Shown one piece after another: positions 16,471-47,476 of a DNA stretch of 64,000 bases. The notes below the pieces were generated by a model. It was not told the DNA's origin. It made no database searches and saw only the letters and a program-made list of their open reading frames with translations. How positions within the stretch are numbered: the first letter of the stretch is position 1; every line of letters starts with the position of its first letter. A program made the position numbers and the translations under genes. This DNA is from an uncultured virus (IMG/VR IMGVR_UViG_3300032294_002400) (taxonomy: Duplodnaviria; Heunggongvirae; Uroviricota; Caudoviricetes), in the IMG/VR virus record IMGVR_UViG_3300032294_002400; one strand, 5' to 3'.

Positions 16471-16773
16471 ATGTCAAAACCAAATCCGCAGGTACAAAAC
16501 TTAAGGCCCATCTATGATGAGTGGGCTTGGCAAGAACAGTCTAATTGTAAAGATGCTGACTCTGAGTTATTCTTTCTTGAACCACTACTTCGCGGAAAGC
16601 AAAAACGAGAAAAGGAAAGAAAAGCAAAGGCGATCTGCAAAGGATGCCCAGTAGTAAACGAATGTTTGCAACATGCAATGAGAACTCCAGAGTACTTTGG
16701 CGTTTGGGGTGGAATGACGGCAGATGAAAGAAATGCGCTACTGCGCAAGCAAGGTGTAAGAATAATCAGATAA
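16471..16773 (+). CDS. whiB: WhiB family transcriptional regulator
   Basis: Four Cys (C..., CxxCPV..C) and GVWGG. Confidence 0.95.
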   Translation: MSKPNPQVQNLRPIYDEWAWQEQSNCKDADSELFFLEPLLRGKQKREKERKAKAICKGCPVVNECLQHAMRTPEYFGVWGGMTADERNALLRKQGVRIIR

Positions 16774-16829
16774 GCGTAAACTAATAATTTACAGTTTACA
16801 AACAAGACAAATATGTATATGGTCCGTCT

Positions 16830-17126
16830 ATGGCACTAGACATAGAGATATCTAGAAACTATCCAATCTTTAAAGACCATGGAACTCCGGTATGCGCGAC
16901 TACAGATCCTGAAATCTTTTTTCCAGAAAAAGGAGCTAAGGGTCAATCAATATATATTATACAGGCAGCGCGACGTATGTGCGAAAATTGTCCATATAAG
17001 CAACCATGTCTTGAGTGGGCCGTTGAGCATGATGAAATGGGGATCTGGGGCGGCACAACCGCAAAAGAACGACGTGTTCACCGCAGAGCGTTAAAAAGTC
17101 GCAAGGAGCAAAAAGCGATAGAATAG
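16830..17126 (+). CDS. whiB: WhiB family transcriptional regulator (second copy)
   Basis: C..TDPEIFFP...CxxCP...C...GIWGG. Confidence 0.95.
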   Translation: MALDIEISRNYPIFKDHGTPVCATTDPEIFFPEKGAKGQSIYIIQAARRMCENCPYKQPCLEWAVEHDEMGIWGGTTAKERRVHRRALKSRKEQKAIE

Positions 17127-19066: not shown

Positions 19067-19088
19067 ATTTAACCATATCGTGAATCAG

Positions 19089-19161
19089 AGCGGACGACCG
19101 GGTTCGAACCGGCGACCTGAACCTTGGCAAGGTTCCGCGCTACCAACTGCGCTACGTCCGC
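19089..19161 (-). tRNA. tRNA-Gly (GCC), no encoded CCA
   Basis: GCGGACGTAGCGCAGTTGGTAGCGCGGAACCTTGCCAAGGTTCAGGTCGCCGGTTCGAACCCGGTCGTCCGCT cloverleaf. Confidence 0.95.
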
Positions 19162-30341: not shown

Positions 30342-30471
30342 GGGCATCCCACTTCCTAACGGGACCAGTACTAAGAAGTTAGCTGGCTAAAACTTTTTTC
30401 GATCTGCCTGACCAAAACGAAAGTTTCCTGTTATAATTGATTCAGCAGGACAAAAGGACGAAAGGAATTAC

Positions 30472-31122
30472 ATGCCGCAGTTGAAACACTTGGCTAGGTT
30501 TACAACTCCTGTAAACCTAAACGTAAACGACACTAAGGACACTCCCATCAATACTAAACAATACATAAGCGTTAACACCGCTGTCTATCACGTGTTAACT
30601 CATTCAACACAACCATTAAGCGTTATTGAAATTGCTGAGGCAGCCTCGCGACATGCAGGACGAGCCTTTGGTGAAATGCATGTACGCACTGAATTAAAAA
30701 CTCTTATGGATAAGAGACTTGTCTCCGCACGTAAGGAGACTCGTGAAGAGCAGCTCGTCCGTTCGGACGGCGGAAGGATGTCGTGGAACCCAGCAACTTT
30801 ATACTGGGCTCCTGCGGGTCCGGTTCCAACTCGTACGGTTGCCGAGGCAGTTGAAGGCGTGCGCCTTTTCTCTGACACAATTACTCCATCTCGCAAGATC
30901 TACAAGTACCCAACCAAGAAGGTTCAACGTGAACACCTTCAGGCCCAGCTTGTCGAGACCCAGCTTGTTGACGTAACCCCTATGCCTACAAGCTCGAATT
31001 CGGTAGTAGACTACCTAATCGAGAAGATGGTAGCGGAGCGCACGGCGGACATCCAAGCTCAATTGGATGCGGCCAACGCGAAGCTTGCCAAACTCCAGGA
31101 ACTTCTTAAGTCAGCTCTTTAA
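30472..31122 (+). CDS. Hypothetical protein, possible winged-helix
   Basis: PLSVIEIAE...VRTELKTL...LV; C-terminal coiled coil. Confidence 0.55.
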   Translation: MPQLKHLARFTTPVNLNVNDTKDTPINTKQYISVNTAVYHVLTHSTQPLSVIEIAEAASRHAGRAFGEMHVRTELKTLMDKRLVSARKETREEQLVRSDGGRMSWNPATLYWAPAGPVPTRTVAEAVEGVRLFSDTITPSRKIYKYPTKKVQREHLQAQLVETQLVDVTPMPTSSNSVVDYLIEKMVAERTADIQAQLDAANAKLAKLQELLKSAL

Positions 31123-31143
31123 CATCCGTTTATTGTCTCACCC

Positions 31144-31371
31144 ATGGTGAGCATTCAACTGTATGTGGTAGAGACCGCCGAACAGGCAAAGCAAGCTGAG
31201 TCCTTGGATCTCGCAGAATTCTTTGCGGATGATACGGTGTGTGAGAACTGTGATGTAGCTATAGGCTTCATCAACAACCGGTTCTCTCCCTGTGTCATCT
31301 GCGTCGAAGAAGAGGACGACATCTGGCTTGTCTGCATCGAATGTGCCGGTGGTGTTTTACTTACCGAATAA
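31144..31371 (+). CDS. Small Cys-rich protein
   Basis: Three CxxC motifs. Confidence 0.55.
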   Translation: MVSIQLYVVETAEQAKQAESLDLAEFFADDTVCENCDVAIGFINNRFSPCVICVEEEDDIWLVCIECAGGVLLTE

Positions 31372-31440
31372 ACCTGATATAATTAAACCATCATCGCAAC
31401 CGCGGTGGTAATGACAGAATGACGAAAGGGAAGTAACCAC

Positions 31441-31785
31441 ATGGTTAGCACCGTAATCACAGAGACGAAAGTCTCCACTGTAAAAAAGGTTACCGATAAG
31501 GTAGACCTTACCAACCAGGCTGCAGCCGCCGAAAAGGCATTGGCAGCATTCACATTCGCAAAGGATGCGATTAAGGCGTACGAAGAGAAGAAGGCGGAAG
31601 CAGAAGCTATCCTCCGCGAACTTCTAGGTGACGCGGATGTCGCAATCATTGGTGGTGTAGAGCGTTTCAAGCTTGCGCACTCAACTAATTCCAAGATCGA
31701 CCGTAAGGTCCTGCAGGAGCTCTTCCCAGAAGCTTTCGAAGCAACACTGGTCAAGACTCCATACACCTTCATCAAAACTATCTAA
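31441..31785 (+). CDS. Hypothetical protein
   Basis: Own promoter, leader and terminator. Confidence 0.7.
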   Translation: MVSTVITETKVSTVKKVTDKVDLTNQAAAAEKALAAFTFAKDAIKAYEEKKAEAEAILRELLGDADVAIIGGVERFKLAHSTNSKIDRKVLQELFPEAFEATLVKTPYTFIKTI

Positions 31786-31793
31786 TAGTTTAT

Positions 31794-31828
31794 AAAAGGA
31801 CCCCTGGCAAACGCCAGGGGTCTTTTTG
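31794..31828 (+). terminator. Intrinsic terminator
   Basis: GGACCCCTGGC-AAAC-GCCAGGGGTCTTTTT. Confidence 0.85.
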
Positions 31829-31899
31829 TTTGTTAGCCTGTTGTACTTTATAATAGAACCATGATACAATTGTACTATCAACACGACGGAAGGATTCAA

Positions 31900-32193
31900 A
31901 TGAACACCTGGCTTATCCAAACACAAAGCGTCTCACTAGACGCGGCAGTAAATACAGGGTCCGAATGGACCATCGCTGAGATTCGTAAGATGGAAGTTAT
32001 GAAAGCTTCCGGTAAGTCTATCAAGGACATTGCTAATGCCCTTGGTCGCTCATACTATTCAGTATCCACAAAGCTATTCAACTCTGGACTATCAAGTCAC
32101 AGAGTTACCAACAAGCCTGTTCAGACCCTCCACCCCGTGGTCTGTGGAAATTGTTTTACAATTCCATCAAAAACAGGTACATGTTACTGCTAA
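31900..32193 (+). CDS. HTH protein with C-terminal Zn ribbon
   Basis: WT..E.......GKSIKDIANALGRS; CxxC...CxC. Confidence 0.65.
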   Translation: MNTWLIQTQSVSLDAAVNTGSEWTIAEIRKMEVMKASGKSIKDIANALGRSYYSVSTKLFNSGLSSHRVTNKPVQTLHPVVCGNCFTIPSKTGTCYC

Positions 32194-32327
32194 ACCTGAT
32201 ATAATAGTACCATAACGATGAAGGGGCAGCCGCTGGTCACCTGAACGGCTTCAACTTGCAAGGGTCGGAAACAATACGGCGCCTTCATCGTTCTAAATTT
32301 AAAGACAAACGACGGAAGGACAGTTAA

Positions 32328-32573
32328 ATGGAAAAGCTTACATACGGCGACTACGTTAACTGGGTAGAGCCTAAGCAACCTGGCAACCACCGTTCTTGCG
32401 TCCAGTGCGGACGTAAGGTAGGAAAGAATTCCTACATGGTACCTATATCAAACTCAGGAGCTATCCTACGTTCAGAGAACGACGAAAACTCTCAAGGGCT
32501 TTGGCCGGTTGGCCGCGAGTGCGCGAAAGCTTTCGCACCTGATGTACTTTTTATCTCAAACATGATACTATAG
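32328..32573 (+). CDS. Small Zn-binding protein
   Basis: CxxCGR...PVGRECA. Confidence 0.6.
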   Translation: MEKLTYGDYVNWVEPKQPGNHRSCVQCGRKVGKNSYMVPISNSGAILRSENDENSQGLWPVGRECAKAFAPDVLFISNMIL

Positions 32574-32993
32574 TCCTATACACAATGACGGAAGGAAAAC
32601 ACATGAGTTCACTGCATAAGCTCAAGGTCGCAGACCTAGAGACCATAGACCACCTACGCGAGTGGGTTGACGAGCGACTGTACGGTTCAGTCGTAGTTAT
32701 CGATACGAATGGCGAGGTTGTCATTCGCACTGGACTAGGCATTGACCTGGGCAACTACCTCTACCCGCTGGATGAGGAGGAATGATGACTACCATCGACC
32801 AAACAGAGTTTTATTTCATCGAGGATGCACTGTTCGTGTGCTGCGATGAACATCAGTTCAAGTACCGTTGCAAGCGCCATGACGAGATGATGGGATGCCA
32901 GTTCTGTTCATTCGACCCTTATGGTCCCTGCGATTGTCCAGAATAACATCTACCTGATATAATAGTATTATACACAACGACGGAAGGAAACAC

Positions 32994-33227
32994 ATGAGTA
33001 CCAAAGCTGACATTCTAAAGCGCCTTGCAGAGCTTGGCGACAATGACATTGTTGCAGTTCCAGTTATTCGTACCAAAGCTGAGGCTGAGGATATCTACGA
33101 GTACTCTGAGAACAAATCAATTATTCTTACAGATTACGAGTGGCGTGATGTCGTAGCTGACTACGAGAACGCCGAATATTATGATGACGAAGCATTGGTT
33201 GAGTCTATCAAGATGGTTACGCAATAA
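32994..33227 (+). CDS. Hypothetical protein
   Basis: Own promoter and leader. Confidence 0.65.
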   Translation: MSTKADILKRLAELGDNDIVAVPVIRTKAEAEDIYEYSENKSIILTDYEWRDVVADYENAEYYDDEALVESIKMVTQ

Positions 33228-33275
33228 ACCTGATATAATAGTACTATACACACCCAAACGACGAAAGGATACACA

Positions 33276-33731
33276 ATGGCTGACAAAGACAAGGTTGTAG
33301 GCAAAGCCCTATACCTAGAATTCCGCGCAGGTATTTCAACATACCAGCTGCTGCTTACACCGGATGGAATCTCTTCCAATGGTCGCGCAGTACCCGCAAC
33401 AGTATACCGCCGACAGATTTCTAAATTGAAGCCTCGACGCGCATGGAAGACCTATTCTCTTCCTTCACTGCCAATCAACGCCTTCGGAACGTACGAAGTA
33501 GCTGACAAGGACAAGGCACTACAAACTGCTGACTCTCGAGTTGGCTACCTAGCAACTACGCTTTCACAGCTCAAGTCCTATAGCTACACGCTCTACAAGC
33601 AACCTCTTCTCATTGAGGTATCGCAAGAAGATCTTGAGTCAATTCGTCTATCAAAGACTCCTTACAAGATTCTTGGACGTATCACCAGAGTGCGCCGCAC
33701 TCTTGGTTTCGGCGAATTCATCGTAGACTAA
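33276..33731 (+). CDS. Hypothetical protein
   Basis: Own promoter and leader. Confidence 0.7.
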   Translation: MADKDKVVGKALYLEFRAGISTYQLLLTPDGISSNGRAVPATVYRRQISKLKPRRAWKTYSLPSLPINAFGTYEVADKDKALQTADSRVGYLATTLSQLKSYSYTLYKQPLLIEVSQEDLESIRLSKTPYKILGRITRVRRTLGFGEFIVD

Positions 33732-33762
33732 TACCCACACCCAAACGACAAAGGACAAACAA

Positions 33763-34764
33763 ATGACTGCAACAATTGAAACAATGAAGGAAACCTTCGA
33801 GGCTCTGTCTCCAGACCTTGTTATTTCCACTACACTAGTTGATGCTCTTATCCAGAGCATTCATCCAGAGACATCTTCATCTCTAGACTCACAGGTTCTC
33901 GCTCAGGGTAAAGTAAACGCACGACCAACCCCTAAAGCAAAGGTTATCCCTGTGGTATCAGCAGATGCACTTGTAGGCGACACCGTCTACACTCGTCCTA
34001 ATGGCGAGCAATACCATTCACGCAAGTGGGGAGAGCATGACGATGTTATGGTTCTTCGCAAGGCGCGTATGGACCAGCAATTCATTCTTCTCTATGGAGC
34101 TCCAGGTTGCGGAAAGACTGCACTTGTAGAAGCTGCATTCGAAAAGCTCTACACAATCATGGGAACAGGCGATACAGAACTTGCCGACTTCATTGGTGGC
34201 TACGTACAAACTCCAACAGGAGGATTCGTCTGGGAAGATGGTCCACTTGTAAAAGCTGCAGAGCAGGGTGTACCTCTACTAATCGATGAGATTGGTCTTA
34301 TTGATCCTAAGGTTCTTTCAGGAGTCTACGGACTTATGGATGGACGTAAGGAACTAACAATCACTGCAAACCCAGAGCGCGGAACTGTAAAAGCAAAAGA
34401 TGGGTTCTACGTCATTGCTGCTACTAATCCAAATGCACCTGGAGTTCGCTTATCAGAAGCGTTGCTATCTCGCTTCATCGTTCAAACAGAGATGACCACA
34501 GACTGGTCACTCGCTAAAAAGCTTGGCGCATCTACACAGATCGTCACAGTTGCACAGAACATCAATCGTCGCCAGGCATCTGGCGAGTGTGGTTGGTGCC
34601 CACAGATGCGTGAACTCTTAGCGTTCCGCGACATCTCTAAATCGTTCGGCACAAAGTTCGCTATCGCGAACTTAATCGCTTGCGCTCCAGAGCTCGACCG
34701 CCCCGTCGTTGCGGACGTCCTCACACGAGTGTACGGCGAGGAATGCCGACCAGCCAAGATCTAA
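33763..34764 (+). CDS. MoxR/CbbQ/CobS-like AAA+ ATPase
   Basis: GAPGCGKT, LLIDEI, AATNP, ALLSRF. Confidence 0.9.
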   Translation: MTATIETMKETFEALSPDLVISTTLVDALIQSIHPETSSSLDSQVLAQGKVNARPTPKAKVIPVVSADALVGDTVYTRPNGEQYHSRKWGEHDDVMVLRKARMDQQFILLYGAPGCGKTALVEAAFEKLYTIMGTGDTELADFIGGYVQTPTGGFVWEDGPLVKAAEQGVPLLIDEIGLIDPKVLSGVYGLMDGRKELTITANPERGTVKAKDGFYVIAATNPNAPGVRLSEALLSRFIVQTEMTTDWSLAKKLGASTQIVTVAQNINRRQASGECGWCPQMRELLAFRDISKSFGTKFAIANLIACAPELDRPVVADVLTRVYGEECRPAKI

Positions 34765-34781
34765 TTCCCCTTGGCGTAGGG

Positions 34782-34817
34782 AAGGGAACTCCAGATGGGT
34801 GTCTGGAGTTTCCTTTT
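34782..34817 (+). terminator. Intrinsic terminator
   Basis: GGGAACTCCAGAT-GGGT-GTCTGGAGTTTCCTTTT. Confidence 0.75.
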
Positions 34818-34867
34818 CCCCACTTACCTGATATAATAGTACTATTCAAATGACGGAAGGATAGAAC

Positions 34868-36661
34868 ATGGCACACCTAAAGGTTTCAAAGACTCGTGCG
34901 GAGCAGACTCCAACCGAGTGGCTAAAGGTCGGAGCTCAGCTCGGCGAGCTAGTCAACACCTGGGCAGGACGCTCAGACATCGTTGCCTACGTTGGCCCAG
35001 GCGCTGGCAGCTCAGCACCTGCTTGTTTCAACCCACCAATGGCTGAGGTTGAGGTAGACGTTGCTATTGCGTTCGGCGCAGGAGTAACTCCAGAGACGAT
35101 TGGCGACATTCGCAATCGCACAACACAATTCGATTTCCCACGAGCATCCGGTGCAATCTTCCACGAGGCACTCCATGCTCGTTACTCACGCTACGACTTA
35201 CTAAAAGCTATCGAAGATCTTTCAAAGAACGAGATGATGGCGCTTACGATTCTTGAAGAGACTCGTATCGAAGCTCTCGGTGTAGAAAACTTCCCAGCCA
35301 ATCGAGTATTCCTACGCGCTTGCGCAATGGACATCATCCTTGATGATATTCGTGAAAACTTGGAAAAGAACACCACAACTCGCGCAATGGCGCAGTTGGC
35401 AGCTCTAGTCTGTGCTCGCATTGATGCGGGGTCTCTAGACCCAGAAGATGCTCTAGACGTTCAAGGTATGGTTTCAGATTGGTTCGGCGCAGAACGCTAC
35501 GCACAACTTCGTGACATCTGGCTTCGATTCCAAAAGTACGAAGGTCACTTTAATGCTCTACCACTCTATGATCTTGCTCGCGAGTGGGAAGCAGTCATCA
35601 AGGACGTTTCAGACGAGAATGGCGAGACTGAAGGTGAAGAGATGATGGCTGCCGCTATGGCAGGTATCATTGCAGACATCATCGAGTCTCTCGAAGAAGC
35701 CGCGGAAGACATTGCAATTGCAATTGGCGACGAAGCTCAAGAACAAGAGCAAAAAGAAGAGTGGAAAGAAGTTGTCGACATTCGTGGGAAAGCTGCCAAG
35801 CAGCAAAAAGACCATGAAAAGATTTCCGAGGAAGTCTTTAACAAGTCTACAGGCGAAGCAGGCAATGGCAGCTACTCACGCATCAAGGAGACTCGTGCAC
35901 CATCTGGCCCAGAGCGTGCGGCAGCAGTCAAGATTGCAAACATGCTTGAGCGCGCAAAGTATCGTGAGCGCGATGAGAAGGAAGTAACTTCAATTCTTCC
36001 TCCAGGACGTCTACGTACTCGCGCGATGCTTCAAGAAGCTGCGTATCAAGCAAGAGGTTCGATGATGCACGCAGAGCCATGGAAGCGTACAGTGCGCAAG
36101 CACACCGACGACCCAACGCTCAACGTTGGAGTTATGGTTGACATCTCTGGCTCAATGGCAGATGCAATGCAGCCAATGGCAGTTACCGCTTGGGCAATGT
36201 CAGAAGCTGTGCGACGTGTTCAAGGACGTTGCGCCATGGTCTACTACGGTTCAGGTGTATTCCCTACACTCAAGCCAGGTCAGCATCTTTCAGAGGTCAA
36301 CGTATACTCTGCTCCTGATGGAACTGAAAAGTTCGATAAGGCATTCAAGGCACTCGATGGTTCTCTAAATCTTCTTAATGGAACTGGCGCTCGTCTACTC
36401 GTAGTTGTTAGCGATGGTTGCTACACTCCAGAAGAGACTGAGAAAGCTAAAAAGTGGATTCAGGAATGTGAAAAGAACGGAGTCGCAGTCTTGTGGATTC
36501 CTTTCGCTCACTCTTATCAACTTGCGTACGTTCGCGAGATTGTTAAGGGAACATCAGTTGCTCTTCTACAAGATGTAACAGATCCAGCAGACGCTGCTCT
36601 TCAAATCGGAAAAGCTGCGGCAGACGCTCTAACAAAGATTGGCGCACGTAACGCTGCGTAA
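34868..36661 (+). CDS. CobT-like protein: HExxH metallopeptidase-like domain plus vWA domain
   Basis: FHEALH...LEETRIE; MIDAS DISGSM, T, VSDG. Confidence 0.85.
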   Translation: MAHLKVSKTRAEQTPTEWLKVGAQLGELVNTWAGRSDIVAYVGPGAGSSAPACFNPPMAEVEVDVAIAFGAGVTPETIGDIRNRTTQFDFPRASGAIFHEALHARYSRYDLLKAIEDLSKNEMMALTILEETRIEALGVENFPANRVFLRACAMDIILDDIRENLEKNTTTRAMAQLAALVCARIDAGSLDPEDALDVQGMVSDWFGAERYAQLRDIWLRFQKYEGHFNALPLYDLAREWEAVIKDVSDENGETEGEEMMAAAMAGIIADIIESLEEAAEDIAIAIGDEAQEQEQKEEWKEVVDIRGKAAKQQKDHEKISEEVFNKSTGEAGNGSYSRIKETRAPSGPERAAAVKIANMLERAKYRERDEKEVTSILPPGRLRTRAMLQEAAYQARGSMMHAEPWKRTVRKHTDDPTLNVGVMVDISGSMADAMQPMAVTAWAMSEAVRRVQGRCAMVYYGSGVFPTLKPGQHLSEVNVYSAPDGTEKFDKAFKALDGSLNLLNGTGARLLVVVSDGCYTPEETEKAKKWIQECEKNGVAVLWIPFAHSYQLAYVREIVKGTSVALLQDVTDPADAALQIGKAAADALTKIGARNAA

Positions 36662-36667
36662 CAAGCT

Positions 36668-36719
36668 CCGGTGTGGGTAGACCTTCCGTCAGATTACTCT
36701 ACCTGCACCGGTTATTCTT
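36668..36719 (+). terminator. 14-bp hairpin with 16-nt loop (terminator and/or regulatory RNA)
   Basis: CCGGTGTGGGTAGA / TCTACCTGCACCGG followed by TTATTCTT. Confidence 0.65.
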
Positions 36720-36750
36720 AATCAATCAACGAACGACGAAAGAGGAAAAG

Positions 36751-37668
36751 ATGAAAACCAAAGTACTACTGATTGCGGCAGCCTTAGGGTTATCGCTACT
36801 TACAACTCCGGCGCATGCGACAGGCGACAAAACTCTTGTCATCATCGACTCCGGTATCAACACAAAACTCGATTGGGCTAAGGCTGCAATCGTAGAGGAA
36901 GCTTGCTTCATCGAGTTCGGCAGATGTCCTAATGGACAAGCAAGCATGGTCGGTCCTGGTGCGGCTCACCTAGACCCAGCGCTTGTCAAAGACAGAGCAC
37001 TCAGCCACGGAACACAGATGGCTTCAGTGGCGGTAGCTACTAATCCAAATGTAAAGATTGTGTTCGTTCGTATCGTTGGCATGTCTGCTAAAGGCTTTGC
37101 CAATTCATACACAACTCGCGGTCTTGCAACAGCAATGGACTGGGTTTCAGCTAACGCGCAACGACTTAACGTTGGTGCGGTTTCGATTTCCTTAGGACGA
37201 GCGTATTCAGAAGCTTCGTGTCCGATTGCGGCAGAGCCTCGACTACAATCTCAAATCGTTGGGCTTGCCTCAATGAACGTAGCAACAGTAATTGCTGCGG
37301 GCAATAACTCTAATCAAACTAAGATTAACTATCCAGCCTGCATCCCTCAAGCGATTTCGGTAGGAGCTACGGATCGTCCGTACACGGTCAAGCAAGTTCA
37401 AGGCACGGTCTATCCCATCATGTTGATTTCCAACGGTGGACCTGACCTCGACCTCGTAGCCTTAGGGCGTTACACCGTAACGGACCTTAACGGCGTCAGA
37501 GCAGTCAGCCTTGGTACATCCAACGCGAACACTGCGGTGGCAACCAGACTGGCTCAGAGCCTCTCAGACGGGTCAACCCTGGCGTCGGTAATGGAAAGGG
37601 TTAACGGGTCTCTCCAGAACGCGTACCGAACCGTGACCGATTTCGTAAAAAAGTTCTACCAAACCTGA
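36751..37668 (+). CDS. Secreted subtilisin-like serine protease (S8)
   Basis: Signal peptide; IIDSG, SHGT, AAGN, GTS catalytic motifs. Confidence 0.85.
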   Translation: MKTKVLLIAAALGLSLLTTPAHATGDKTLVIIDSGINTKLDWAKAAIVEEACFIEFGRCPNGQASMVGPGAAHLDPALVKDRALSHGTQMASVAVATNPNVKIVFVRIVGMSAKGFANSYTTRGLATAMDWVSANAQRLNVGAVSISLGRAYSEASCPIAAEPRLQSQIVGLASMNVATVIAAGNNSNQTKINYPACIPQAISVGATDRPYTVKQVQGTVYPIMLISNGGPDLDLVALGRYTVTDLNGVRAVSLGTSNANTAVATRLAQSLSDGSTLASVMERVNGSLQNAYRTVTDFVKKFYQT

Positions 37669-37765
37669 TATAATAGTACTACGCAGCCAGCGGACATGAA
37701 ACCGTAGGCGAGAGTCTACCAGACTTTCTTCCGCTGGCTGCCCACCAAATGACGAAAGGACGAGC

Positions 37766-38002
37766 ATGAAAGACATCTACGTAGCCCATGAAGGCATGGA
37801 CACGTTTTTTACCATGTCCGATACGGGATACATCTTCTCAGGCGCGGACGTCGAACAAGACCCAGAGCTAACCGAGGACTTAGAGAACGGATACTGTCGT
37901 TCGTCTTGCGAACAGGTTGGGTATGTGATTACCCCAGGACTGGCGCAGATGTTTTATGAGCTGGCCAAAAGCTACTGGGACTATGAGAATTCTAAAGGGT
38001 AG
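37766..38002 (+). CDS. Hypothetical protein
   Basis: Leader motif upstream. Confidence 0.6.
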   Translation: MKDIYVAHEGMDTFFTMSDTGYIFSGADVEQDPELTEDLENGYCRSSCEQVGYVITPGLAQMFYELAKSYWDYENSKG

Positions 38003-38065
38003 TTTACTTTATAATAGAACCATGATACAATTATCTTATTAACACACTAACAGATTGGAAATCAA

Positions 38066-38287
38066 ATGGCTAACAAGAACAACGCAGTTGCGAACGAGAT
38101 CGTTGAATGGTTCGAAAACTACGCATCAGTATACGAGTTTGATACTCGAATTCAATTCGAGGACTTCTCACTCGAGGACATGAAGTCATGTGACCTCGAG
38201 TCAGTATGGGCAATCGTTGGCCCAAAGGTTAAGGAACTGGTTGGCCAGTACCTTGAAGGTGGAATAGAAGACCACGACGACGAATAA
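38066..38287 (+). CDS. Acidic hypothetical protein
   Basis: Own promoter, AGATTGGAA leader, terminator 38297-38325. Confidence 0.65.
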   Translation: MANKNNAVANEIVEWFENYASVYEFDTRIQFEDFSLEDMKSCDLESVWAIVGPKVKELVGQYLEGGIEDHDDE

Positions 38288-38399
38288 GAGTGATTCAGGG
38301 TGGGCGCTAATAAAGCGTCCACCTTGTTTACTTTCTATTATAAACATGATACAATTATACTATTAACCACAAGGGTTAGTATTTAGATTGGAACCTTAA

Positions 38400-38828
38400 A
38401 TGTACCCAACATATGAAGAAATCAAGAAGGTCTCTCAAGACACCACTCTCACACCTTCTCAAAAGATGCATGAAATCTTCAAAAACTCAAAGACAGAACC
38501 ACTAAGCAAGTGGCTAGAGCAGAGCATCTTCAAAACCCACCCAATTGATCCATCACTTAAGATAGACCAAGCAGAGGTTGTTGAAGTAAATGCAGATGGT
38601 CAGACTTTAGTATTCAGATACCCAGATAACACCTACTACTATGTTGATGCGGGTATGTACACTAAGATTGATGATGTAGACCACATAGCATATGATCTTA
38701 TTCAAGGTAATGATAGTTATTTTGAAGACCTCTTGATGACAGATGACTCTCCTCTAGTTTTCTATAGAGGATTCTGGGTTGATGAAGACCTTCAAAAGTT
38801 CTTCATCAACTCATACCCAGAAGAATAA
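38400..38828 (+). CDS. Hypothetical protein (CpG-depleted)
   Basis: Own promoter, AGATTGGAA leader, hairpin 38839-38865. Confidence 0.7.
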   Translation: MYPTYEEIKKVSQDTTLTPSQKMHEIFKNSKTEPLSKWLEQSIFKTHPIDPSLKIDQAEVVEVNADGQTLVFRYPDNTYYYVDAGMYTKIDDVDHIAYDLIQGNDSYFEDLLMTDDSPLVFYRGFWVDEDLQKFFINSYPEE

Positions 38829-38933
38829 TTTCAGTTGCGGTAACCCTCTCCCCCTAGAGGGTTACCTTCAATTGTTTACTTTATAATAGATTCATGTTAT
38901 AATTAAACCATACCAACGACGGAAGGATAGAAC

Positions 38934-39134
38934 ATGTCAAACGAAGAAGACGTAGTTATCTACGACTCAAGCCTAACCCTTGAGCAACTCAAAGGTTATT
39001 GGAACTACATGCGGGACGAAGAAGTAGACGAAGAGATTACCTTCACCCAAGAAGAAATTGATCAACTTGCCAATGACGTGAATGATGCGATTCAAGCAGT
39101 CATTGAAGACTTTCTAAATCACAGGGACAACTAA
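38934..39134 (+). CDS. Acidic hypothetical protein
   Basis: Promoter and leader cassette. Confidence 0.65.
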   Translation: MSNEEDVVIYDSSLTLEQLKGYWNYMRDEEVDEEITFTQEEIDQLANDVNDAIQAVIEDFLNHRDN

Positions 39135-39319
39135 TGAGCGTCGAAGTTACGGATGGAAACGCTTACTCATTCATTGGAGCTGGACGCAAAGCATTGTTGC
39201 GGCAAGGACGTCATGAACAGGTTCAACAGTTCACCGAAGAGATGACCTCAGGAGACTACGACCATCTCATTCAAACATTCCTTAAGTGGTTTCCAGATGC
39301 GGAGATACATACATCATGA
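39134..39319 (+). CDS. Hypothetical phage protein
   Basis: DGNAYS.IG....AL...G......F..E..SGDYDHL motif. Confidence 0.7.
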   Translation: MSVEVTDGNAYSFIGAGRKALLRQGRHEQVQQFTEEMTSGDYDHLIQTFLKWFPDAEIHTS

Positions 39320-39681
39320 TAGCAGCATTGCGAATTAACACAGACTTCACGACAGAAGTCTTAGATCTTGAAGAGGACACTCTTGGAAAGCTACAAGATG
39401 CGGTAGGTGGTTGGGTACAAGCAATTGACCTACAGGAGAACTTAACTCTCTGGTGTAACGAAGAAGGGAAGCTCGCTGGCTTACCGACTAACGTAATTGG
39501 AACTCATCTATGGGAAAAGTCATTTGGTATGACAGACATCATTATGGGTGACATCGTCTTCACCGGTGGTACAGGCGACCAAGGTGAGAACCTGCCTTTA
39601 CCTCACGCATGGCAAGTACAACTCGAAGAACTTGCGAAGAAGCTTCGCAGTGCTTACGAGGGACAGGTTACGGTCATCTAA
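39316..39681 (+). CDS. DUF3846 family protein
   Basis: LQ.AVGGW......LWCNEEGKL.GLP.N...D.I.G.IVFTG. Confidence 0.8.
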   Translation: MIAALRINTDFTTEVLDLEEDTLGKLQDAVGGWVQAIDLQENLTLWCNEEGKLAGLPTNVIGTHLWEKSFGMTDIIMGDIVFTGGTGDQGENLPLPHAWQVQLEELAKKLRSAYEGQVTVI

Positions 39682-39879
39682 TGGCGAGAAATGAAGCTGC
39701 GGGCATCTGGGAAATCCGTGATGTTCATACAGGAGAACGCATCTCTAAGTTTCGTGCCCGTAAACGCGCGGACGTTACTAGATACCTGGAGATGGCGCGG
39801 ATTGGTCTAAAACGACCAATAGAAGATTTCGAGGCAGTATTTATTACCGAATGGGAATAAACATGTTATAATAGCACTA

Positions 39880-40168
39880 ACAACTTAATACTTAGGTTTG
39901 GACTTACTGAATCTTGGAGCGTAAGGGTATCCCATGGGGACACTACTCCCGATAAGCTGACACGGCGCCGCGGGTAGGGGCAGCTTGGTTCAGGACAAAG
40001 ACCGGAACAAAACTAACTTAGGAAAGTTCGGAGTAAAACCTGATAGCAAGATCTACATCAGGTACTGCGCAAAAAGTGAGGCGCGACTCAAAGCCTTCGT
40101 GCGTGAAAGTCTGTCCACATGTTTGAGGCTGGTCGTATCCCGGAATGGTGCGGCCAGCTTCATTCTTT
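39880..40168 (+). ncRNA. Putative structured non-coding RNA
   Basis: Cassette promoter at 39862-39872, no leader or credible ORF, many stems, 15-bp terminal hairpin 40125-40161. Confidence 0.6.
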
Positions 40169-40392
40169 ACGGTGTTGTACTTTTTATTATAACCATGTTA
40201 TAATTAGACTATCAACCACCGAACAAGGGAGAATGATTAAATGAATAGCCTTATACTTACAGTAGTTGGAAAAGACGGAAAGACATCACAACCCGTTTAT
40301 GAAGTACACTCGTACGAAAAGGCAATTGAAATTATCAATGCCACATGGAGAATTGACCATGTTACCGACATTATAAAAGTAGAAATCGTGTA

Positions 40393-40632
40393 ATGACAAG
40401 TAACTACCCGCCAGGCGTCTCTGGATTTGAACCACAGATTGCTGGAGCTCATGAAAGCGAGAGCCTTCAAGAACTTGACTGCGGCAACGACGAGTGTGAC
40501 GCATGCTACGAGGTTCCAAGCTTTGAAGAGTATTCCCATGATACGGTCACATGGACTGCTGAATGGGTCTGTAACCAGTGCGGTGAGGAAAACTCCCGCG
40601 AAGGTTGGTACGACACAAACAATAGTTTCTAA
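40393..40632 (+). CDS. Small acidic Zn-binding protein
   Basis: SNYPPGV; Cys pairs. Confidence 0.6.
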   Translation: MTSNYPPGVSGFEPQIAGAHESESLQELDCGNDECDACYEVPSFEEYSHDTVTWTAEWVCNQCGEENSREGWYDTNNSF

Positions 40633-40666
40633 ACTGAGTATGATTAACTTAACCAAAGGAGAGAAC

Positions 40667-40882
40667 GTGGAGTCTACCATTACTGAAGAAGTAGTAGAAG
40701 AGACAGTTCAAGAGTCATACGGCTGGGTTCCTTGTGACTCCTGCCAGACAGCCCAGGCAATCTGGAAGGTTACCGGGAACTCCGGAGAGCTATTCTTTTG
40801 CGGCCATCACAAAAACAAGATGGAAGCTGGACTTACCGGTTGGGCAAAGGAATTTACCGAGATTGTTTACTTTGACAAGTAA
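40667..40882 (+). CDS. Small Zn-binding protein
   Basis: CDSC...ELFFCGHH. Confidence 0.6.
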   Translation: MESTITEEVVEETVQESYGWVPCDSCQTAQAIWKVTGNSGELFFCGHHKNKMEAGLTGWAKEFTEIVYFDK

Positions 40883-40929
40883 ACATGTTATAATTAAACC
40901 ATAACGACGCAACGACGAAAGGAACTACA

Positions 40930-41220
40930 ATGGGTATCGCTTCAGTAGGAACATCATTACAAGGACACATCACCACCACAATGCGCGAACTGAACTCAGT
41001 GTTCGGCGAACCAACTTTTTACTACCCAGGTGACAAGGTTACCGTCGAATGGGAACATACATTTGACGATGGAACAGTAGTCACAATCTATGATTGGAAG
41101 CGTTACGACGCTGGAGTCCCAGACATGGATGAAATCATGGAGTACAACATCGGTGGATTTAACAGAGATGCGGCAGAAAAAGTCAAGATGGCTGTACTTC
41201 TTGGAACAAATAAGATATAA
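40930..41220 (+). CDS. Hypothetical phage protein
   Basis: GTSLQG.I..T..EL..VFG.P...KV..EW...TIYDWK motif. Confidence 0.7.
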   Translation: MGIASVGTSLQGHITTTMRELNSVFGEPTFYYPGDKVTVEWEHTFDDGTVVTIYDWKRYDAGVPDMDEIMEYNIGGFNRDAAEKVKMAVLLGTNKI

Positions 41221-41617
41221 TTATCTTATCAACGACGAAAGGACAATCACATGAATATCGAACTTACCGACAAGGACATCGAGCTAATCCTCCGCGCGCT
41301 TGGCAAGGAAAAGAAATTCTGCCAGGACTCAGGATTTTACGGACTGTCACACATGAACTCAGATTTGATGGCTCGCATTAAGAGTCAGATCCCGGTAGTC
41401 GCGTAATGCTGAAGGAGTATTGCGATACATGCGGTGACCTTGAGTCCAACCACCAAGCTAACCAGGCAGAGAGCGAAAGATTTATCTCCACAGTGAGGGA
41501 AGTCATTTCCATGGGAATGCCAGAAAGACAAGCGCAGGTGCTTGACCAAATTTTATATGACTGGCGAACACACACGCTCCCAGCATGCGACCCACTTTCA
41601 ATAGATTAGGAACACAA

Positions 41618-42217
41618 ATGGAAAAACGACCCAGAATTAAAAAGCAGGTGCCAGTAACGCAACATCAAACGTTGCCGTTTATCGCTACTGCCGCTGTAAA
41701 CATCATAGAGGACGCACCAACCCGTGCGGCGTACGTAAAAGCTCTTCGCATGAAGGGTTGGACGCTCCAAGCGATTGCAAGTGCATTAGGAGTTACACGC
41801 GAGCGTGTTCGTCAAATCGAAAACACCGCTTCGCCATCTCTTCTTGTTCACGTATTATCTAACCCTGGCAACTTCCCAGTTCCGGAGCTAGAAATGCGTG
41901 AAGTCGAGATAGCAGACCCTACACTCATCGTCCCAAGTGAAGCTACACTAAAACGATTACTAGAACTTAAGCCATTTGCGCAGAAAGTTCGCTGGGACCA
42001 ACCAGAGCATCGTGCGGCTGCAGAAGAGTACACAGCTTTGCTATGGCACGCTCATTCGGTTGAAGGTGTAACCGTCTACCGATTAGCCAAGTGTTTAGGG
42101 GTTACCCACGGAGCTATTCGGTTCCGTTTAGCTCGCTACGGATACATTCAGCCTATAACTGGAAAAAGTAAAGCCTATACTCCAATCAAGGACAAGAACC
42201 GAGCGAGTTTACTATGA
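41618..42217 (+). CDS. Double HTH (sigma70 region 4-like) DNA-binding protein
   Basis: GWTLQAIASALGVTRERVRQI; GVTVYRLAKCLGVT. Confidence 0.75.
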   Translation: MEKRPRIKKQVPVTQHQTLPFIATAAVNIIEDAPTRAAYVKALRMKGWTLQAIASALGVTRERVRQIENTASPSLLVHVLSNPGNFPVPELEMREVEIADPTLIVPSEATLKRLLELKPFAQKVRWDQPEHRAAAEEYTALLWHAHSVEGVTVYRLAKCLGVTHGAIRFRLARYGYIQPITGKSKAYTPIKDKNRASLL

Positions 42218-42371
42218 GCGACTTGTATGATTTAGTTAACGTATTCGATGAGGCTGGAACCTGGATGGGACAGTTCATTGATGAAGATACTGCAAAGGAT
42301 TGGCTTAAGAAGCACGAGCTAGATTCTTCGAAGTACGAGATTTCGAAGAGACGACCAGAATGGGAGAGAAA

Positions 42372-42632
42372 GAAGTGAACGCGGACAAACTACAAATAAT
42401 CGACTCTTCCTATCACCGTAATGGCGTAGCTGGTATGCCGTTCACTGTAGCTCTCGTCGACGACCCTGAACAGGCAGACGTAAAACTTGTCATCATGTTC
42501 GAGACTGAAGGACATACCGCTGTCCTAAGCTTGGATAAGCTTGTCGAGGAAGATATTCATTTCGGATCTAACTCGTGGCGCGGTGACCAGTATGAAGAAG
42601 CTCTTCGCTCAAAGTTGTTCGAAGACGCTTAA
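42372..42632 (+). CDS. Hypothetical phage protein
   Basis: YHRNGV.G.PF...NSWRGD.YE..LR motif; exact start uncertain. Confidence 0.65.
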   Translation, partial: EVNADKLQIIDSSYHRNGVAGMPFTVALVDDPEQADVKLVIMFETEGHTAVLSLDKLVEEDIHFGSNSWRGDQYEEALRSKLFEDA

Positions 42633-42719
42633 TAGATTTCTGTAGTGTATTCCAATCCGCTACAGAACGACCTGGGTACGTCATTAAACTGCCTACCTAA
42701 CAATGTCGAAAGGACACCA

Positions 42720-42962
42720 ATGATAGTAGCAACATTACATAAGAGCAAGGCACCAAACGCTGCCTGGCTAGTAGAGGTTAAGGACCTTGCGACTGGTGAA
42801 TCACGCCGCGGAGCATTTAAGTCTCTTGGACCTGCTAAGCGCGAGGCAGTGATTTATGCCAGCGCATTTCTAGATACCGAGCGAAAGCGTCTACCTTGGG
42901 TAGAAGACCTAGCTCAAGCTGAGCAGGGTATCGGTTACTTCCGTGCCGAGGTAGATGCGTAA
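42720..42962 (+). CDS. Hypothetical protein
   Basis: GAAAGGA leader. Confidence 0.6.
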   Translation: MIVATLHKSKAPNAAWLVEVKDLATGESRRGAFKSLGPAKREAVIYASAFLDTERKRLPWVEDLAQAEQGIGYFRAEVDA

Positions 42963-43210
42963 TGGACCAAATTGCCGAGCAGACAAGAGCCGTAGAAGAA
43001 CTGTCTACGTCTCCTTGTCAATGCATCGTCTATCACCCTAAGGCTTCTTCCGATGAGTGGAAGCGAGTTTATAAGGACTGGGAGGATACGGGTAGAACCA
43101 GCATGCAGATGCTGGTACAGCTCTTCGAGCGTTGCCCTAACCAAGCCTAATTTTACTTTCCTGACCGAACCTGATATAATAGTACTATAACAACGACGGA
43201 AAGGATAAAC

Positions 43211-43546
43211 ATGGGTATAGAGACACTAGTTTCCGAGATTACCTTGGGAGCACATGATTCTGACTTAATCAGACTAAAGGACGCGATTGACGCACGCCTA
43301 AAGGCTTCACGTTCTTCACGGACACTTGCAGACTTTAACATCGGTGATACGGTAGTCTTCAATGATCTAACTGCAACTCGTTACATGGTTGGCCAAAAGG
43401 CAACCGTGACAGGGATGAAGCAGAAGAAGGTCACTGTAAGACTGGAGACACCCGTTGGAAGGTTTGCCCACGTAAACCCAGTGACAGGTAGAGTTGAATC
43501 TGCCAACATTACGGTTCCAGTGGCTATAATTGATCTCGTAAAGTAA
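43211..43546 (+). CDS. Hypothetical protein (SH3/KOW-like)
   Basis: FNIGDTVVF; promoter and leader cassette. Confidence 0.65.
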   Translation: MGIETLVSEITLGAHDSDLIRLKDAIDARLKASRSSRTLADFNIGDTVVFNDLTATRYMVGQKATVTGMKQKKVTVRLETPVGRFAHVNPVTGRVESANITVPVAIIDLVK

Positions 43547-43615
43547 GACGTAGTCCAGGCGCTTAGGATACAGTTTACCTAGCGCCTGGAGGCGTCTTAT
43601 TGGGAGAGGAATACC

Positions 43616-44182
43616 GTGACTACTCTTGCGGCGATTCAAGGCGACGGCTGGTCAGTCATCGGTTGTGATTCACGAGCATCTGATGAAGATGGTCGTTTCA
43701 TGGTACTTGCGACTCATAAGATAGTAGACAACAATGGAGTTCTCATTGCGGTGTCTGGTGCTTCGCGAGGTGGCAACATTGCGCAGTTCGGTTGGAAACC
43801 TCCAGTCCCTACTCGTAGCGAAGACCTCGACGTTTTTATGACAAAGAAGTTTATACCGTCACTTCGTAAAGCTTTCGTTGATGCGGGCTTTGAAGGAAAA
43901 GAAGATGGTGATGCTGCTTGGCACGATTCGAACTTAATTGTTTCGGTACGCGGAGTAATATACCCAATATTCAATGACTACAGCTGGGACAGAGAAGCTA
44001 GGAACGTCTACTACGCAGGTAGCGGTGGTGACATAGCTCTTGGCGCTTTAGAAGCTCTTGACTTTCAAAAGGTTAAGACTCCTGAAGCTGCAGAGAAAAT
44101 ATTACGGCGAGCTATACAAGCAGCTTGCAAACATGACATCTACTCCGGTGGAGAGATTCATACATACATACAAGAAGAGTAA
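43616..44182 (+). CDS. Ntn-hydrolase (proteasome beta/HslV-like) protease
   Basis: N-terminal (M)TT, DSR, K, YAGSGG..ALGAL, DIYSGG. Confidence 0.85.
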   Translation: MTTLAAIQGDGWSVIGCDSRASDEDGRFMVLATHKIVDNNGVLIAVSGASRGGNIAQFGWKPPVPTRSEDLDVFMTKKFIPSLRKAFVDAGFEGKEDGDAAWHDSNLIVSVRGVIYPIFNDYSWDREARNVYYAGSGGDIALGALEALDFQKVKTPEAAEKILRRAIQAACKHDIYSGGEIHTYIQEE

Positions 44183-44222
44183 GTTACCGACAGGTAACTT
44201 ATCCTGATATAATAGTACTATA

Positions 44223-44777
44223 ATGACAAATGACAAAGAGACGAGAAAAGACATGGCAAAGGTAATTAACATCGAAACAGGATACGCACCAGCTCACGAA
44301 ATTGTTGACTGGGATTTCCCACTGTGGAGTGAGATCATGCCTAACCTATGGGTTGGCGGTACGGATGACGATGACACAATTGAAGACTCTGTAAACCTCC
44401 ACGCAACTCGTAAAATCACTAAAGAAGATTTTGACGCGGTAGTCACACTTTATGCATGGGCACAGCCAGTCGACTGGATGGTCGAGGAACTACGGTTCGG
44501 ATTTTATGACTCCGGAATTGCTCACATTGACATGGAAGCATTACATCGCGCAGCTTCATTTGCGGTTGACCACGTTCGTGATGGCAATAAGGTTTTAATT
44601 CGTTGCCAGGCTGGGTTGAATCGCTCTGGTCTTACCGCTGCTCTAGCTCTAATCCAAATGGGCTACAAGCCAGACGAGGCAATTGATCTCTTGCGAGCAA
44701 AGCGTAGTCGCTATGTCTTGATTAACAAAGAGTTCGAAGAGTTCTTATTGGCGTTAGAAGATGATAACGATGAGTAA
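44223..44777 (+). CDS. Dual-specificity protein phosphatase
   Basis: VLIRCQAGLNRSG (CX5R). Confidence 0.9.
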   Translation: MTNDKETRKDMAKVINIETGYAPAHEIVDWDFPLWSEIMPNLWVGGTDDDDTIEDSVNLHATRKITKEDFDAVVTLYAWAQPVDWMVEELRFGFYDSGIAHIDMEALHRAASFAVDHVRDGNKVLIRCQAGLNRSGLTAALALIQMGYKPDEAIDLLRAKRSRYVLINKEFEEFLLALEDDNDE

Positions 44778-45693
44778 GCTTCACATCGCTTACGATGACA
44801 TTTACCTGGACTGGCAATTAGGAAGCGGTGATGGCAGTCACCCAACAAATCCTATGCGAGCTAAGCTTGCGGTAGAGCTCCTTGAAGGTTTAGATCCAGT
44901 AATGGTAAACCCTGCTGCGTCTGAATCTGATAGAGATCTATTGAGTCATGTTCATAGTGATGGTTACATTTCTAAGGTGCTTGACAAAGGTCATTGCGGT
45001 GAATGGTATCCAGACCAGACACATCTTGGCAAGGTAGCTCTTGAAATGGCTGCGGGAACTATTCGTCTATACGAAAAGATCCTTAGCGGTGAAGCAAAGG
45101 TTGCGTTTAATCCTCAGGGAGCTAAGCACCATGCGCAGTACGACCACTCATCTGGTTTTTGCGTATTCAATGACATGGCGCTAGTCGCTAAGCTGTTTTC
45201 AGCTGTGGGGCTTAAGCCTATGTACATCGACTGGGATGCACATCACGGTGATGGCGTTGAAAACATCCTACGGGCATACCCCAATATAGTTACGGCAAGT
45301 ATTCACGAGGATGGAATCTTTCCTGGCACTGGTCTTGCAAGCGAGCCAGAAAACGGAGCTTACAATTGGCCGTTGAACAGTGAAGCTGGAGACGTAGATT
45401 TCTTAGACGCTATGAAGGAGATAGAAATCCTAGCTGATGAGATTCAGCCAGACGTAATCCTTCTAGCTACCGGAGCTGACGCACATCATTCAGATCCGTT
45501 ATCGTCTTTGACGTTTGATTACCCTGGCTATCGTGCAGCAGCTCGCATTATTGCGGACATTGCTAACAAGCATGCAAAGGGTCGAGTGCTTATTGGTGGA
45601 GCTGGAGGCTATCAGCCTCTTACCCATACTCCAAGAGTCTGGGCTGCGGTTGTATCTGAGATCTACAAGCATACTACTCACGTCGCCGTATAA
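44770..45693 (+). CDS. Zn-dependent histone deacetylase family protein (AcuC-like)
   Basis: GAKHHA, SGFCVFND, DWDAHHGDG, GADAH.SDPL, GAGGY. Confidence 0.9.
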   Translation: MSKLHIAYDDIYLDWQLGSGDGSHPTNPMRAKLAVELLEGLDPVMVNPAASESDRDLLSHVHSDGYISKVLDKGHCGEWYPDQTHLGKVALEMAAGTIRLYEKILSGEAKVAFNPQGAKHHAQYDHSSGFCVFNDMALVAKLFSAVGLKPMYIDWDAHHGDGVENILRAYPNIVTASIHEDGIFPGTGLASEPENGAYNWPLNSEAGDVDFLDAMKEIEILADEIQPDVILLATGADAHHSDPLSSLTFDYPGYRAAARIIADIANKHAKGRVLIGGAGGYQPLTHTPRVWAAVVSEIYKHTTHVAV

Positions 45694-45723
45694 CATTTCC
45701 TTTTATAAGGTACTATAGTACAC

Positions 45724-47115
45724 ATGGGAAAAAGTCTAGCACAGCTCATTGCGGCCATGTCCGACGAAGAGAAGGCTCAGGTTCTAGCAGGTCTAGACCC
45801 TGAGGCTCTTCAATGGGACTGGTCGTTTTGGGGTCGTCCCGAGCAGCAACGCCCTGAAGGTGATGAGTGGAATATCTGGATGTACCTTGCAGGTCGCGGT
45901 GCTGGTAAAACTCGCACGGCAGCTGAGTGGGTGCGTGAAGAAGCCAAGCACACAAATCAAGGGCAACGCCGTTTCGCGCTGGTAGCTCGTACAGCTGCTG
46001 ACGTACGTGACGTTATCGTTGAAGGTGAATCAGGAATCATTAACGTTACGCCTCCAAGCGAGCGACCTTTATACGAGCCGTCAAAGCGAAGACTAACTTG
46101 GCCAAATGGAAATACGGCAACATGCTTTACAGCCGACGAGCCAGATTCTCTTCGTGGACCTCAGTTCACACACGCTTGGGGAGATGAGGTTGCCGCTTGG
46201 CGTCAGACTCCAGATGGAGCTGGGCTTACCGCGTTTGAGAACTTACGTATTGGTACTCGTCTTGGTAAGAATCCAAAAATCATGATTACAACTACACCGA
46301 AGCGCGTACCGCTTCTTTATGAGCTACTTCGCGAAGCTGAGAAGAATCCTGAAAAGGTAATCATCACAAAAGGTTCGACGATGGATAACACAGGAAACCT
46401 TTCACAAGCTTACATGGACGGTATCCTCGGTGTGTACGAAGGAACTCGTCTAGCTGCACAAGAGCTTTACGGTGAGATGCTTTCAGATGTTGAAGGAGCT
46501 CTTTGGACTGTAGAGCTTATCGACAGGACTCGTCAGATGTCAGCGATGAACGCGCCATTGCGCGTAATCGGCGTCGACCCATCGGTAGCCGAGAATCCTC
46601 GCGATGAATGCGGCATCGTTGTTGTTTCGTCGACAGCCGAGCGAGATCTTTACAAGCGGCAGAGCTGGGTGCTTGAGGATGCTTCAATCTTAGGCTCACC
46701 CGATGTGTGGGCTAACCGTGTTGTTGCCATGGCTCGTAAATGGGGCTGCCCTGTGGTCGCGGAAGTAAACCAAGGCGGTGCGTTGGTGCGCAACGCCATT
46801 AACACAATTGACCCAACTGTAAAGGTTCTTGAAGTCCACTCCAAATACGGCAAGGCACTTCGCGCTGAGCCTATTACCTTGGCTTACGAACAGGACCGCG
46901 TTCACCACGTTGGCTATCTAGCTGACCTAGAGTCCCAGATGACCGCGTGGATTCCAGGCGAAGGCAAATCCCCTGACCGAGTCGATGCCCTGGTCCATGC
47001 CCTTACCGCGTTACTCATCAAGCCACCTGCGGGATTCGTGGGAGGGCGGATTACCGCCAAGTCCCCTGCGGGTAGGAAGATTCCTAATATTAGAAACACC
47101 TTTAAGGTCAGATAG
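45724..47115 (+). CDS. terL: Terminase large subunit
   Basis: AGRGAGKT, LRGPQF..AW.DE, ITTTP, IGVDP, SPDRVDA. Confidence 0.95.
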   Translation: MGKSLAQLIAAMSDEEKAQVLAGLDPEALQWDWSFWGRPEQQRPEGDEWNIWMYLAGRGAGKTRTAAEWVREEAKHTNQGQRRFALVARTAADVRDVIVEGESGIINVTPPSERPLYEPSKRRLTWPNGNTATCFTADEPDSLRGPQFTHAWGDEVAAWRQTPDGAGLTAFENLRIGTRLGKNPKIMITTTPKRVPLLYELLREAEKNPEKVIITKGSTMDNTGNLSQAYMDGILGVYEGTRLAAQELYGEMLSDVEGALWTVELIDRTRQMSAMNAPLRVIGVDPSVAENPRDECGIVVVSSTAERDLYKRQSWVLEDASILGSPDVWANRVVAMARKWGCPVVAEVNQGGALVRNAINTIDPTVKVLEVHSKYGKALRAEPITLAYEQDRVHHVGYLADLESQMTAWIPGEGKSPDRVDALVHALTALLIKPPAGFVGGRITAKSPAGRKIPNIRNTFKVR

Positions 47116-47476
47116 TTACATTTTCCCAACCTTCCTGATATAATTATCCTAACAACGACGGAAGGAAAGAAAAAATGTCATCAACAACAACAGCTCTCGT
47201 AGCATACTTCGCAGGAGTACTACTAATCGCGGCTCCATTCATCATCGACTCCATCAAGCACGAGCGTCGCATGAAGAAGGGTCGTCGCTAATCATGAACC
47301 CATTCACAGCGGTAATCGATTGGCTTGACGAGTACGCAGACGTTGCGGCACCAGTTGGTGCCTTCGTAGGTGTGGCAATTGCAGTCGCACTTATGTTTAT
47401 CTTCGGATAACCCTACATCTTCCTGATTTACCTGTTATAATTATCTTGTACAGCCCAATGACGAAAGGACAAGAAC

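Follow-up and report, generated by a model that had tools for sequence, protein, structure and literature searches.

The stretch of DNA analysed here, which we call the window, is 64,000 nt long and is part of a complete phage genome of 129,276 bp with terminal repeats. The genome carries three WhiB-like genes (window 16471-17126 and G000:C1:37364-37894), the first of which belongs to PF02467, and all 80 loci kept in a WhiB alignment are Actinomycetota by title. WhiB serves as a freshwater marker for actinobacterial phages, according to PMC6802176. The host of this 129-kb phage is therefore likely an actinobacterium. The feature described here is an RNA gene that occupies one of 19 small cassettes in a row (30429-47441), and the terminase gene lies 5.6 kb further on. 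Every cassette of this array has a TG-n-TAYAAT promoter element, many also have TTTACT at -35 and a common leader motif, and relatives show the cassettes in shuffled order. ARAGORN made no tRNA or tmRNA call on the RNA, its sole call being a tRNA-Gly at 19088-19161. Features of the locus are collected in the table.

Table. Features of the RNA cassette and its immediate surroundings (window coordinates)
Feature	Position	Strand	Remark
59-aa basic protein gene, usual upstream neighbour	39681-39860	+	linked, not obligate
Extended -10 (TG-n-TATAAT) of the cassette promoter, in the phage's cassette-promoter family	39864-39872	+	overlaps end of upstream gene region; -35 poor
Variable 5' leader	39879-39898	+	missing from many homologues; start site probably ~7 nt past the -10
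Conserved core RNA, 219 nt	39899-40117	+	P1 39899-39903/40113-40117 closes three-way junction
Arm A	39907-39993	+	P2 39907-39913/39987-39993; optional hairpin 39964-39984
Most conserved sub-core of arm A	39918-39961	+	P2a 39918-20/39956-58, P2b 39925-27/39948-50, P2c 39930-33/39937-40
72-codon ORF	39985-40203	+	not a gene
Arm B	39994-40112	+	purine-rich junction, P3 39999-40002/40109-12, P3b, P4 40017-22/40094-99
Arm B, continued	within 39994-40112	+	P5 40031-34/40086-89, P6 40038-44/40057-63, P7 40066-70/40081-85
Intrinsic-terminator-like hairpin, 16 pairs, with T-rich tail	40124-40168	+	exchangeable module, outside conserved core
Next-cassette promoter	40178-40204	+	-10 behind the RNA in 35/35

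Several other features of the array were recorded. A protein with a sigma70-r4 HTH (41585-42217) could regulate the cassette-promoter array. Just 5' of the terminase, 43616-45693 encodes a proteasome-subunit-like protein, a dual-specificity phosphatase and a histone-deacetylase-family protein. At 31441-31785 lies an early gene of 114 aa followed by a terminator-like hairpin; contigs cover this gene in 4/4 RNA runs examined. A small stem-clamped structured element precedes a gene start at 32211-32292 and is 94% identical in L005, L008 and L009; it lies 3' of the RNA in L005 and L008, seemingly 5' of it in L083, and replaces it in L009. A second stem-clamped leader, between a promoter and a gene at 37682-37750, is 91-96% conserved in six loci.

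Homologues of the RNA were found in 16 of 80 terminase-linked loci, with 74-97% identity in thirteen and a distant match in the other three. Pattern scans yielded 28 IMG/VR contigs (26/26 in one scan and 2 more among 25 in a relaxed scan) and 28 of 34 metagenome matches. The final set comprises 35 distinct sequences, divided into subfamily A (25, including the window), subfamily B (7) and subfamily C (3). Duplicates were left out, as were the partial sequences L098, L118 and L124 and the chance pattern hits L087, L107, L112, L122, L129, L132, L133 and L170. With another relaxed IMG/VR pattern, 21 of 43 matches were due to chance, mostly from one protein-coding family, and none of these was scored by the family model; the 64 matches of a further relaxed pattern, judged by inspection without model scoring, contained no new member.

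The cassette has its own signals on both sides. The sequence-only reading had placed a cassette promoter ahead of the RNA, and its extended -10 is present on the + strand, but the -35 is poor and a sigma-70 scan did not list the site. Across the family, a -10 element lies at most 60 nt upstream in 33 of the 35 members, 6-30 nt ahead of P1; of the two members without it, one sits at a contig end and the other is preceded by a different small element. A hairpin of -20 to -33 kcal/mol stands 3' of the RNA in all 35 members and is of several unrelated sequence types. That of the window, also proposed from the sequence, holds, with 16 pairs and a T-rich tail at 40124-40162. The promoter of the next cassette sets the RNA apart from the downstream genes, whose proteins fall, by eye, into more than ten different kinds across the family. 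Given a promoter of its own in most members, a fresh promoter behind it in all, and this variety of downstream proteins, we conclude that the RNA is not a cis-leader. Consistent with this, no same-class downstream gene on the same transcript was found among the 35 members, and a riboswitch or cis-leader was rejected.

Neither neighbouring reading frame accounts for the cassette. The 59-aa gene stands directly upstream in 25 of the 35 members and is absent in 5, and it occurs without the RNA in L009, L035 and L048. Each is thus found without the other, and an obligate partnership between RNA and protein was rejected. The 59-aa protein has no Pfam match and no Atlas match above 0.80, and belongs to no known family. 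Conservation of the 72-codon frame that runs through arm B and the terminator was named in the sequence-only reading as evidence that would speak against a non-coding RNA; the frame is intact in 6/35 members, all near-identical to the window, and lost in the other 29, and its product has no Pfam match.

We also noted a hairpin that recurs with a constant loop, GTAYTCCAATCC, while its stems covary freely (window 42638-42668). It forms the terminator of the RNA in many subfamily A members (e.g. L139 and L140), and it is also intergenic, about 100 nt 5' of the terminase in L030, L033, L035, L037, L040 and L050. The fixed loop on changing stems looks like a candidate protein-binding or processing site.

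The fold was derived by comparison within subfamilies. In 24 sequences of subfamily A, double changes occur in 20/60 pairs and 92.8% of cells are paired, a level reached in 0/500 shuffles, whereas slid registers are only 26-42% paired. Since the structure was derived from the same sequences and the shuffle ignores relatedness, 0/500 is not a p-value, and many of the double changes are inherited within clades. The 7 sequences of subfamily B have the same layout in other letters, with double changes in 9/42 pairs and 99% pairing. Cells with G-U outnumber those with A-C by 84 to 29 on the + strand, which speaks for that strand. Pairing in P4 is imperfect, at 70.8%, and an AACTT/AAGTT hairpin is a competing fold. 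Arm B contains two hairpins, and its P6 loop of 12 nt is partly conserved; in the 3 sequences of subfamily C this arm has no confident fold. The optional hairpin of arm A is shorter or missing in subfamilies B and C. None of the pseudoknots considered finds support throughout the three subfamilies: candidates from single subfamilies, which have one double change in A and one in C, clash with better helices or fail in B. Folding energy gave z -1.33 for 39862-40168, z -0.15 for the 219-nt core and +0.73 to -2.86 over 14 members. By themselves these energies do not exceed chance, and the evidence comes from comparing sequences.

The comparison sharpens what had been seen in the window alone. Every motif quoted in the sequence-only reading was located where it had been placed, and the central proposal, a non-coding structured RNA with a cassette of its own, is borne out by covariation, by the conserved promoter and terminator and by loss of the long frame. 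The length proposed for it, about 290 nt, has to be reduced to a conserved RNA of about 220 nt (39899-40117), since the 5' leader and terminator vary. Two of the stems it named, those opening at 39907/39987 and 40038/40057, stand, with double changes in 3/7 pairs each over the 24 sequences. Its five other stems (GGAG/CTCC, AAGCTG/CAGCTT, AACTT/AAGTT, GCGC/GTGC and GAGGC/GCCTT) do not: a double change occurs in 1/24 pairs, pairing is 83.5% against 83.2% in shuffles, and covariation favours other partners. Taken together, the comparisons argue that 39899-40117 is a real conserved structured RNA gene, with a two-armed fold and no conserved frame.

Contigs from RNA libraries cover this gene. Small parts of the window occur in thirteen runs, ten of them recorded as RNA, and we examined four of the thirteen, from four freshwater studies, in the form of contigs without strand, ends or level. 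Because these are contigs and not reads, depth was not used as an expression level. The RNA is covered in all runs with listed pieces or joints (X1, X3 and X5). One contig corresponds to 39922-40132 and ends inside a terminator variant; another corresponds to 39897-40113 and starts upstream of the promoter; and one joint runs through the terminator into the next promoter, the neighbouring genes being covered too.

The RNA is an accessory cassette that is gained, lost and shuffled among related phages. It is present in 3/4 complete genomes and absent from the other. In L009, whose terminase is 97% identical to that of the window, it is cleanly absent at the same site, where the same upstream gene is followed by another cassette. 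Subfamily is independent of terminase identity: a subfamily C member adjoins a 92% terminase, and subfamily A members adjoin terminases of 82-98%. The arms also recombine across lineages, as in the chimeras L108, L126, L160 and L082; in L108, arm A is 99% identical to the window, while arm B is 76% identical to the window and 95% identical to L085. Outside these phages, BLAST against cultured phages and plasmids returned short chance matches only. Cellular homologues were found in 0/151 genomes of the order of G007 (two models), in 0/151 of its class, and in 0/5 further records, all from sampled actinobacterial genomes. These cellular searches were samples in which part of the candidates were scored, the large ones having no positive control; we therefore speak of homologues as not found rather than absent. 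In the collections searched, no member lies outside one phage clade.

Conservation across the three subfamilies is concentrated in arm A. Between A and B its 43-nt sub-core has 70-97% identity, and 65-75% in comparison with C; for arm B, which differs between subfamilies, identity between A and B is 50-63%. The sub-core consists of an A-rich 4x5 internal loop (39921-24/39951-55) between P2a and P2b, an asymmetric loop, and an RUG triloop that caps P2c; the peaks of conservation are short helices and internal loops, with no long open seed. The A-rich loop combines RUAA with a GANAA-type strand in 33 of 35 members and RUAC with AAUAA in the other two, L160 (A) and L010 (C). Neither side is altered singly. 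Because both sides change together and never alone, albeit in two events only, the covariation suggests that the RUAA/GANAA loop contains a non-canonical pair under selection. The UAA/GAN sequence signature is present in the same 33 members, the loop here having one extra purine pair. In PMC2615604, the UAA/GAN motif is described as a GNRA-like loop that makes A-minor contacts, an A-minor module. By its signature, the loop of arm A may thus adopt the UAA/GAN geometry in three dimensions and dock through A-minor contacts.

What such an RNA does for the phage can be approached through these features. We tentatively favour, with a probability of about 0.45, a stand-alone folded non-coding RNA of about 220 bases that is made early and acts in trans, as a decoy or scaffold to which a protein of the host or phage binds. 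Early timing would follow from the type of promoter. The host polymerase would make a discrete free RNA early in infection; this RNA could pack compactly in three dimensions through the A-rich loop of arm A; the near-invariant core would then offer a binding surface for a host or phage protein; and the RNA might serve host takeover or counter-defence, like the small accessory genes around it. Against a protein decoy, single sequences fold no better than shuffles, and a tertiary module would suit a ribozyme or a ligand-binding RNA just as well.

We regard it as unlikely that the RNA is catalytic or the relic of a catalytic RNA, be it part of domain I of a group II intron acting in trans or a relative of RNase P RNA. 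In addition to a ribozyme-like size and tertiary-type loops, arm A mirrors, by eye, the layout of subdomain Ic in nine fetched group II introns, with short helices and loops in much the same succession and with two short motifs at matching places (AAGGGU, a hairpin, then AAGC), and P6 of subfamily A has a helix sequence in common with the intron Id region. However, arm A ends in a triloop where the intron has a GNRA loop, and neither domains II-VI nor an adjoining intron protein was seen. Homology between arm A and subdomain Ic failed in four model-based tests, including an HMM and a covariance model. Family models likewise gave no match to group II introns or to four RNase P RNAs, the best HMM E value over both being 0.054; the P4 pseudoknot expected of an RNase P RNA was not found. 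A ribozyme match in Rfam and a pseudoknot common to the three subfamilies are both lacking.

Quite unlikely, too, is the boldest form of the decoy, a phage-made mimic of ribosomal RNA, in which arm A would copy the base of helix 41 of 16S rRNA and draw a ribosome-binding host protein off ribosomes, while arm B would be an exchangeable domain that stabilises the RNA; the target could be a ribosomal protein, a hibernation factor, or a defence nuclease or sensor. When compared with 16S and 23S rRNA, the arm A profile matched best, locally, at 16S 1235-1267 of G204, which we take to be the base of helix 41 (7.0 bits, E 0.047, equalled in 2/300 shuffles, in one of five families tried). This region folds with a like layout of stem, A-rich loop, GGG/CCC, asymmetric loop and hairpin. 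The loop is 4x5 in the phage RNA versus 5x5 in 16S, and arm B has no counterpart in the helix that follows; the sub-core profile alone was equalled in 19/300 shuffles, likeness over the whole length was within the null for 14/14 members, and the covariance model found no match. RNase I of E. coli binds helix 41, as stated in bioRxiv 10.1101/2024.07.29.605612. An RNase T2 was considered as a partner for the mimic and rejected: the family was not found in 61/61 genomes of the order sampled, and the nucleotides contacted by RNase I, according to the same preprint, sit higher in the helix.

A decoy for RNA polymerase in the manner of 6S RNA or Ms1, as suggested from the window sequence, now seems improbable. 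Its sole argument was the octamer ACCTGATA at 40038, read as a match to the phage promoter; the octamer lacks the promoter's TATAAT, is kept in 7/35 members and forms one strand of the covarying stem P6, so that the argument falls. Like 6S and Ms1, the RNA is stand-alone, 200-300 nt long, paired at its ends and in an actinobacterial setting. According to PMC9130861, Ms1 is a rod of about 300 nt with a central bubble and end hairpins, and its homologues are known to be missed by searches on sequence and structure. About seven letters of the P7 loop of subfamily A recur, by eye, in one fetched Ms1, but this loop is different in subfamilies B and C. In contrast to the Ms1 rod, the present RNA has a closed three-way junction with two branched arms. 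RF02566 found nothing in the phage genome, although the same model finds the real Ms1 in G009, and the family models did not match fetched Ms1.

Equally doubtful is a sponge of the aptamer type that would bind a small molecule, such as a nucleotide that signals in anti-phage defence. Riboswitch aptamers have a short near-invariant core and a variable periphery. The phage RNA resembles them in its near-invariant core of loops and three-pair helices within a variable periphery, and it has no expression platform. No riboswitch family matched, the neighbours give no ligand clue, and we know of no natural RNA sponge for defence nucleotide signals. A small RNA acting by base pairing with mRNAs of the host or phage to regulate them is very unlikely: the stand-alone layout of promoter, RNA and terminator and the partly conserved P6 loop would suit it, yet there is no long conserved open stretch, the best reverse-strand match in the phage genome has E 1.7, and 37 conserved 9-mers have 35 occurrences elsewhere, where chance would give 36.5. 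Just as improbable is a cis element for the neighbours (an attenuator, or a processing or stability signal) or a small-peptide gene, because, although no terminator is listed between the upstream operon and the RNA, which could therefore also form the 3' end of the upstream message, and although the triloop reads AUG or GUG, promoters stand on both sides, the upstream neighbour differs in 5/35 members, the triloop frames differ between subfamilies and the long frame is mostly lost.

To our knowledge, the role of a phage RNA of such size has been established in few cases. In this phage an entire early cassette appears to be spent on an RNA in a region otherwise made up of small accessory protein genes, and the RNA fold, together with one non-canonical loop, seems to be under selection across three subfamilies. 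A small invariant core with a swappable second arm makes a clean object for probing, structure determination and pull-down. If the RNA is a decoy for a host protein, phages that infect very abundant lake bacteria would have a further means of host takeover, one based on RNA.

Among known RNAs, the raiA motif RNA (RF03072) is similar in its 210-250 nt, paired ends and multi-branched form, and exceeds the cut-off in 30/61 genomes of the class sampled; raiA and the phage RNA did not match in either direction, and the latter has no supported pseudoknots. Rfam 15, searched at the gathering cut-off and at E<=10, gave sub-threshold matches only, none over the core, and no ribozyme or riboswitch family. 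No description of the RNA was found in the literature searched. Fremin et al. (2023) screened IMG/VR and obtained 10,006 structured RNA candidates (PMC10690425); the RNA was not found in three of the six text supplements of that article, and the family may be among its unnamed candidates. The comparative evidence argues for a real structured RNA family, new in fold and without a match in Rfam.

GOLLD, ROOL and T4 RNA C and D are orphan structured RNAs of phages and prophages. The lake-phage RNA differs from them in its own sequence and fold, and it is much shorter than GOLLD or ROOL. With all of these and the Fremin candidates, it has in common that it is phage-borne, non-coding and an orphan, and its fold is held by covariation.
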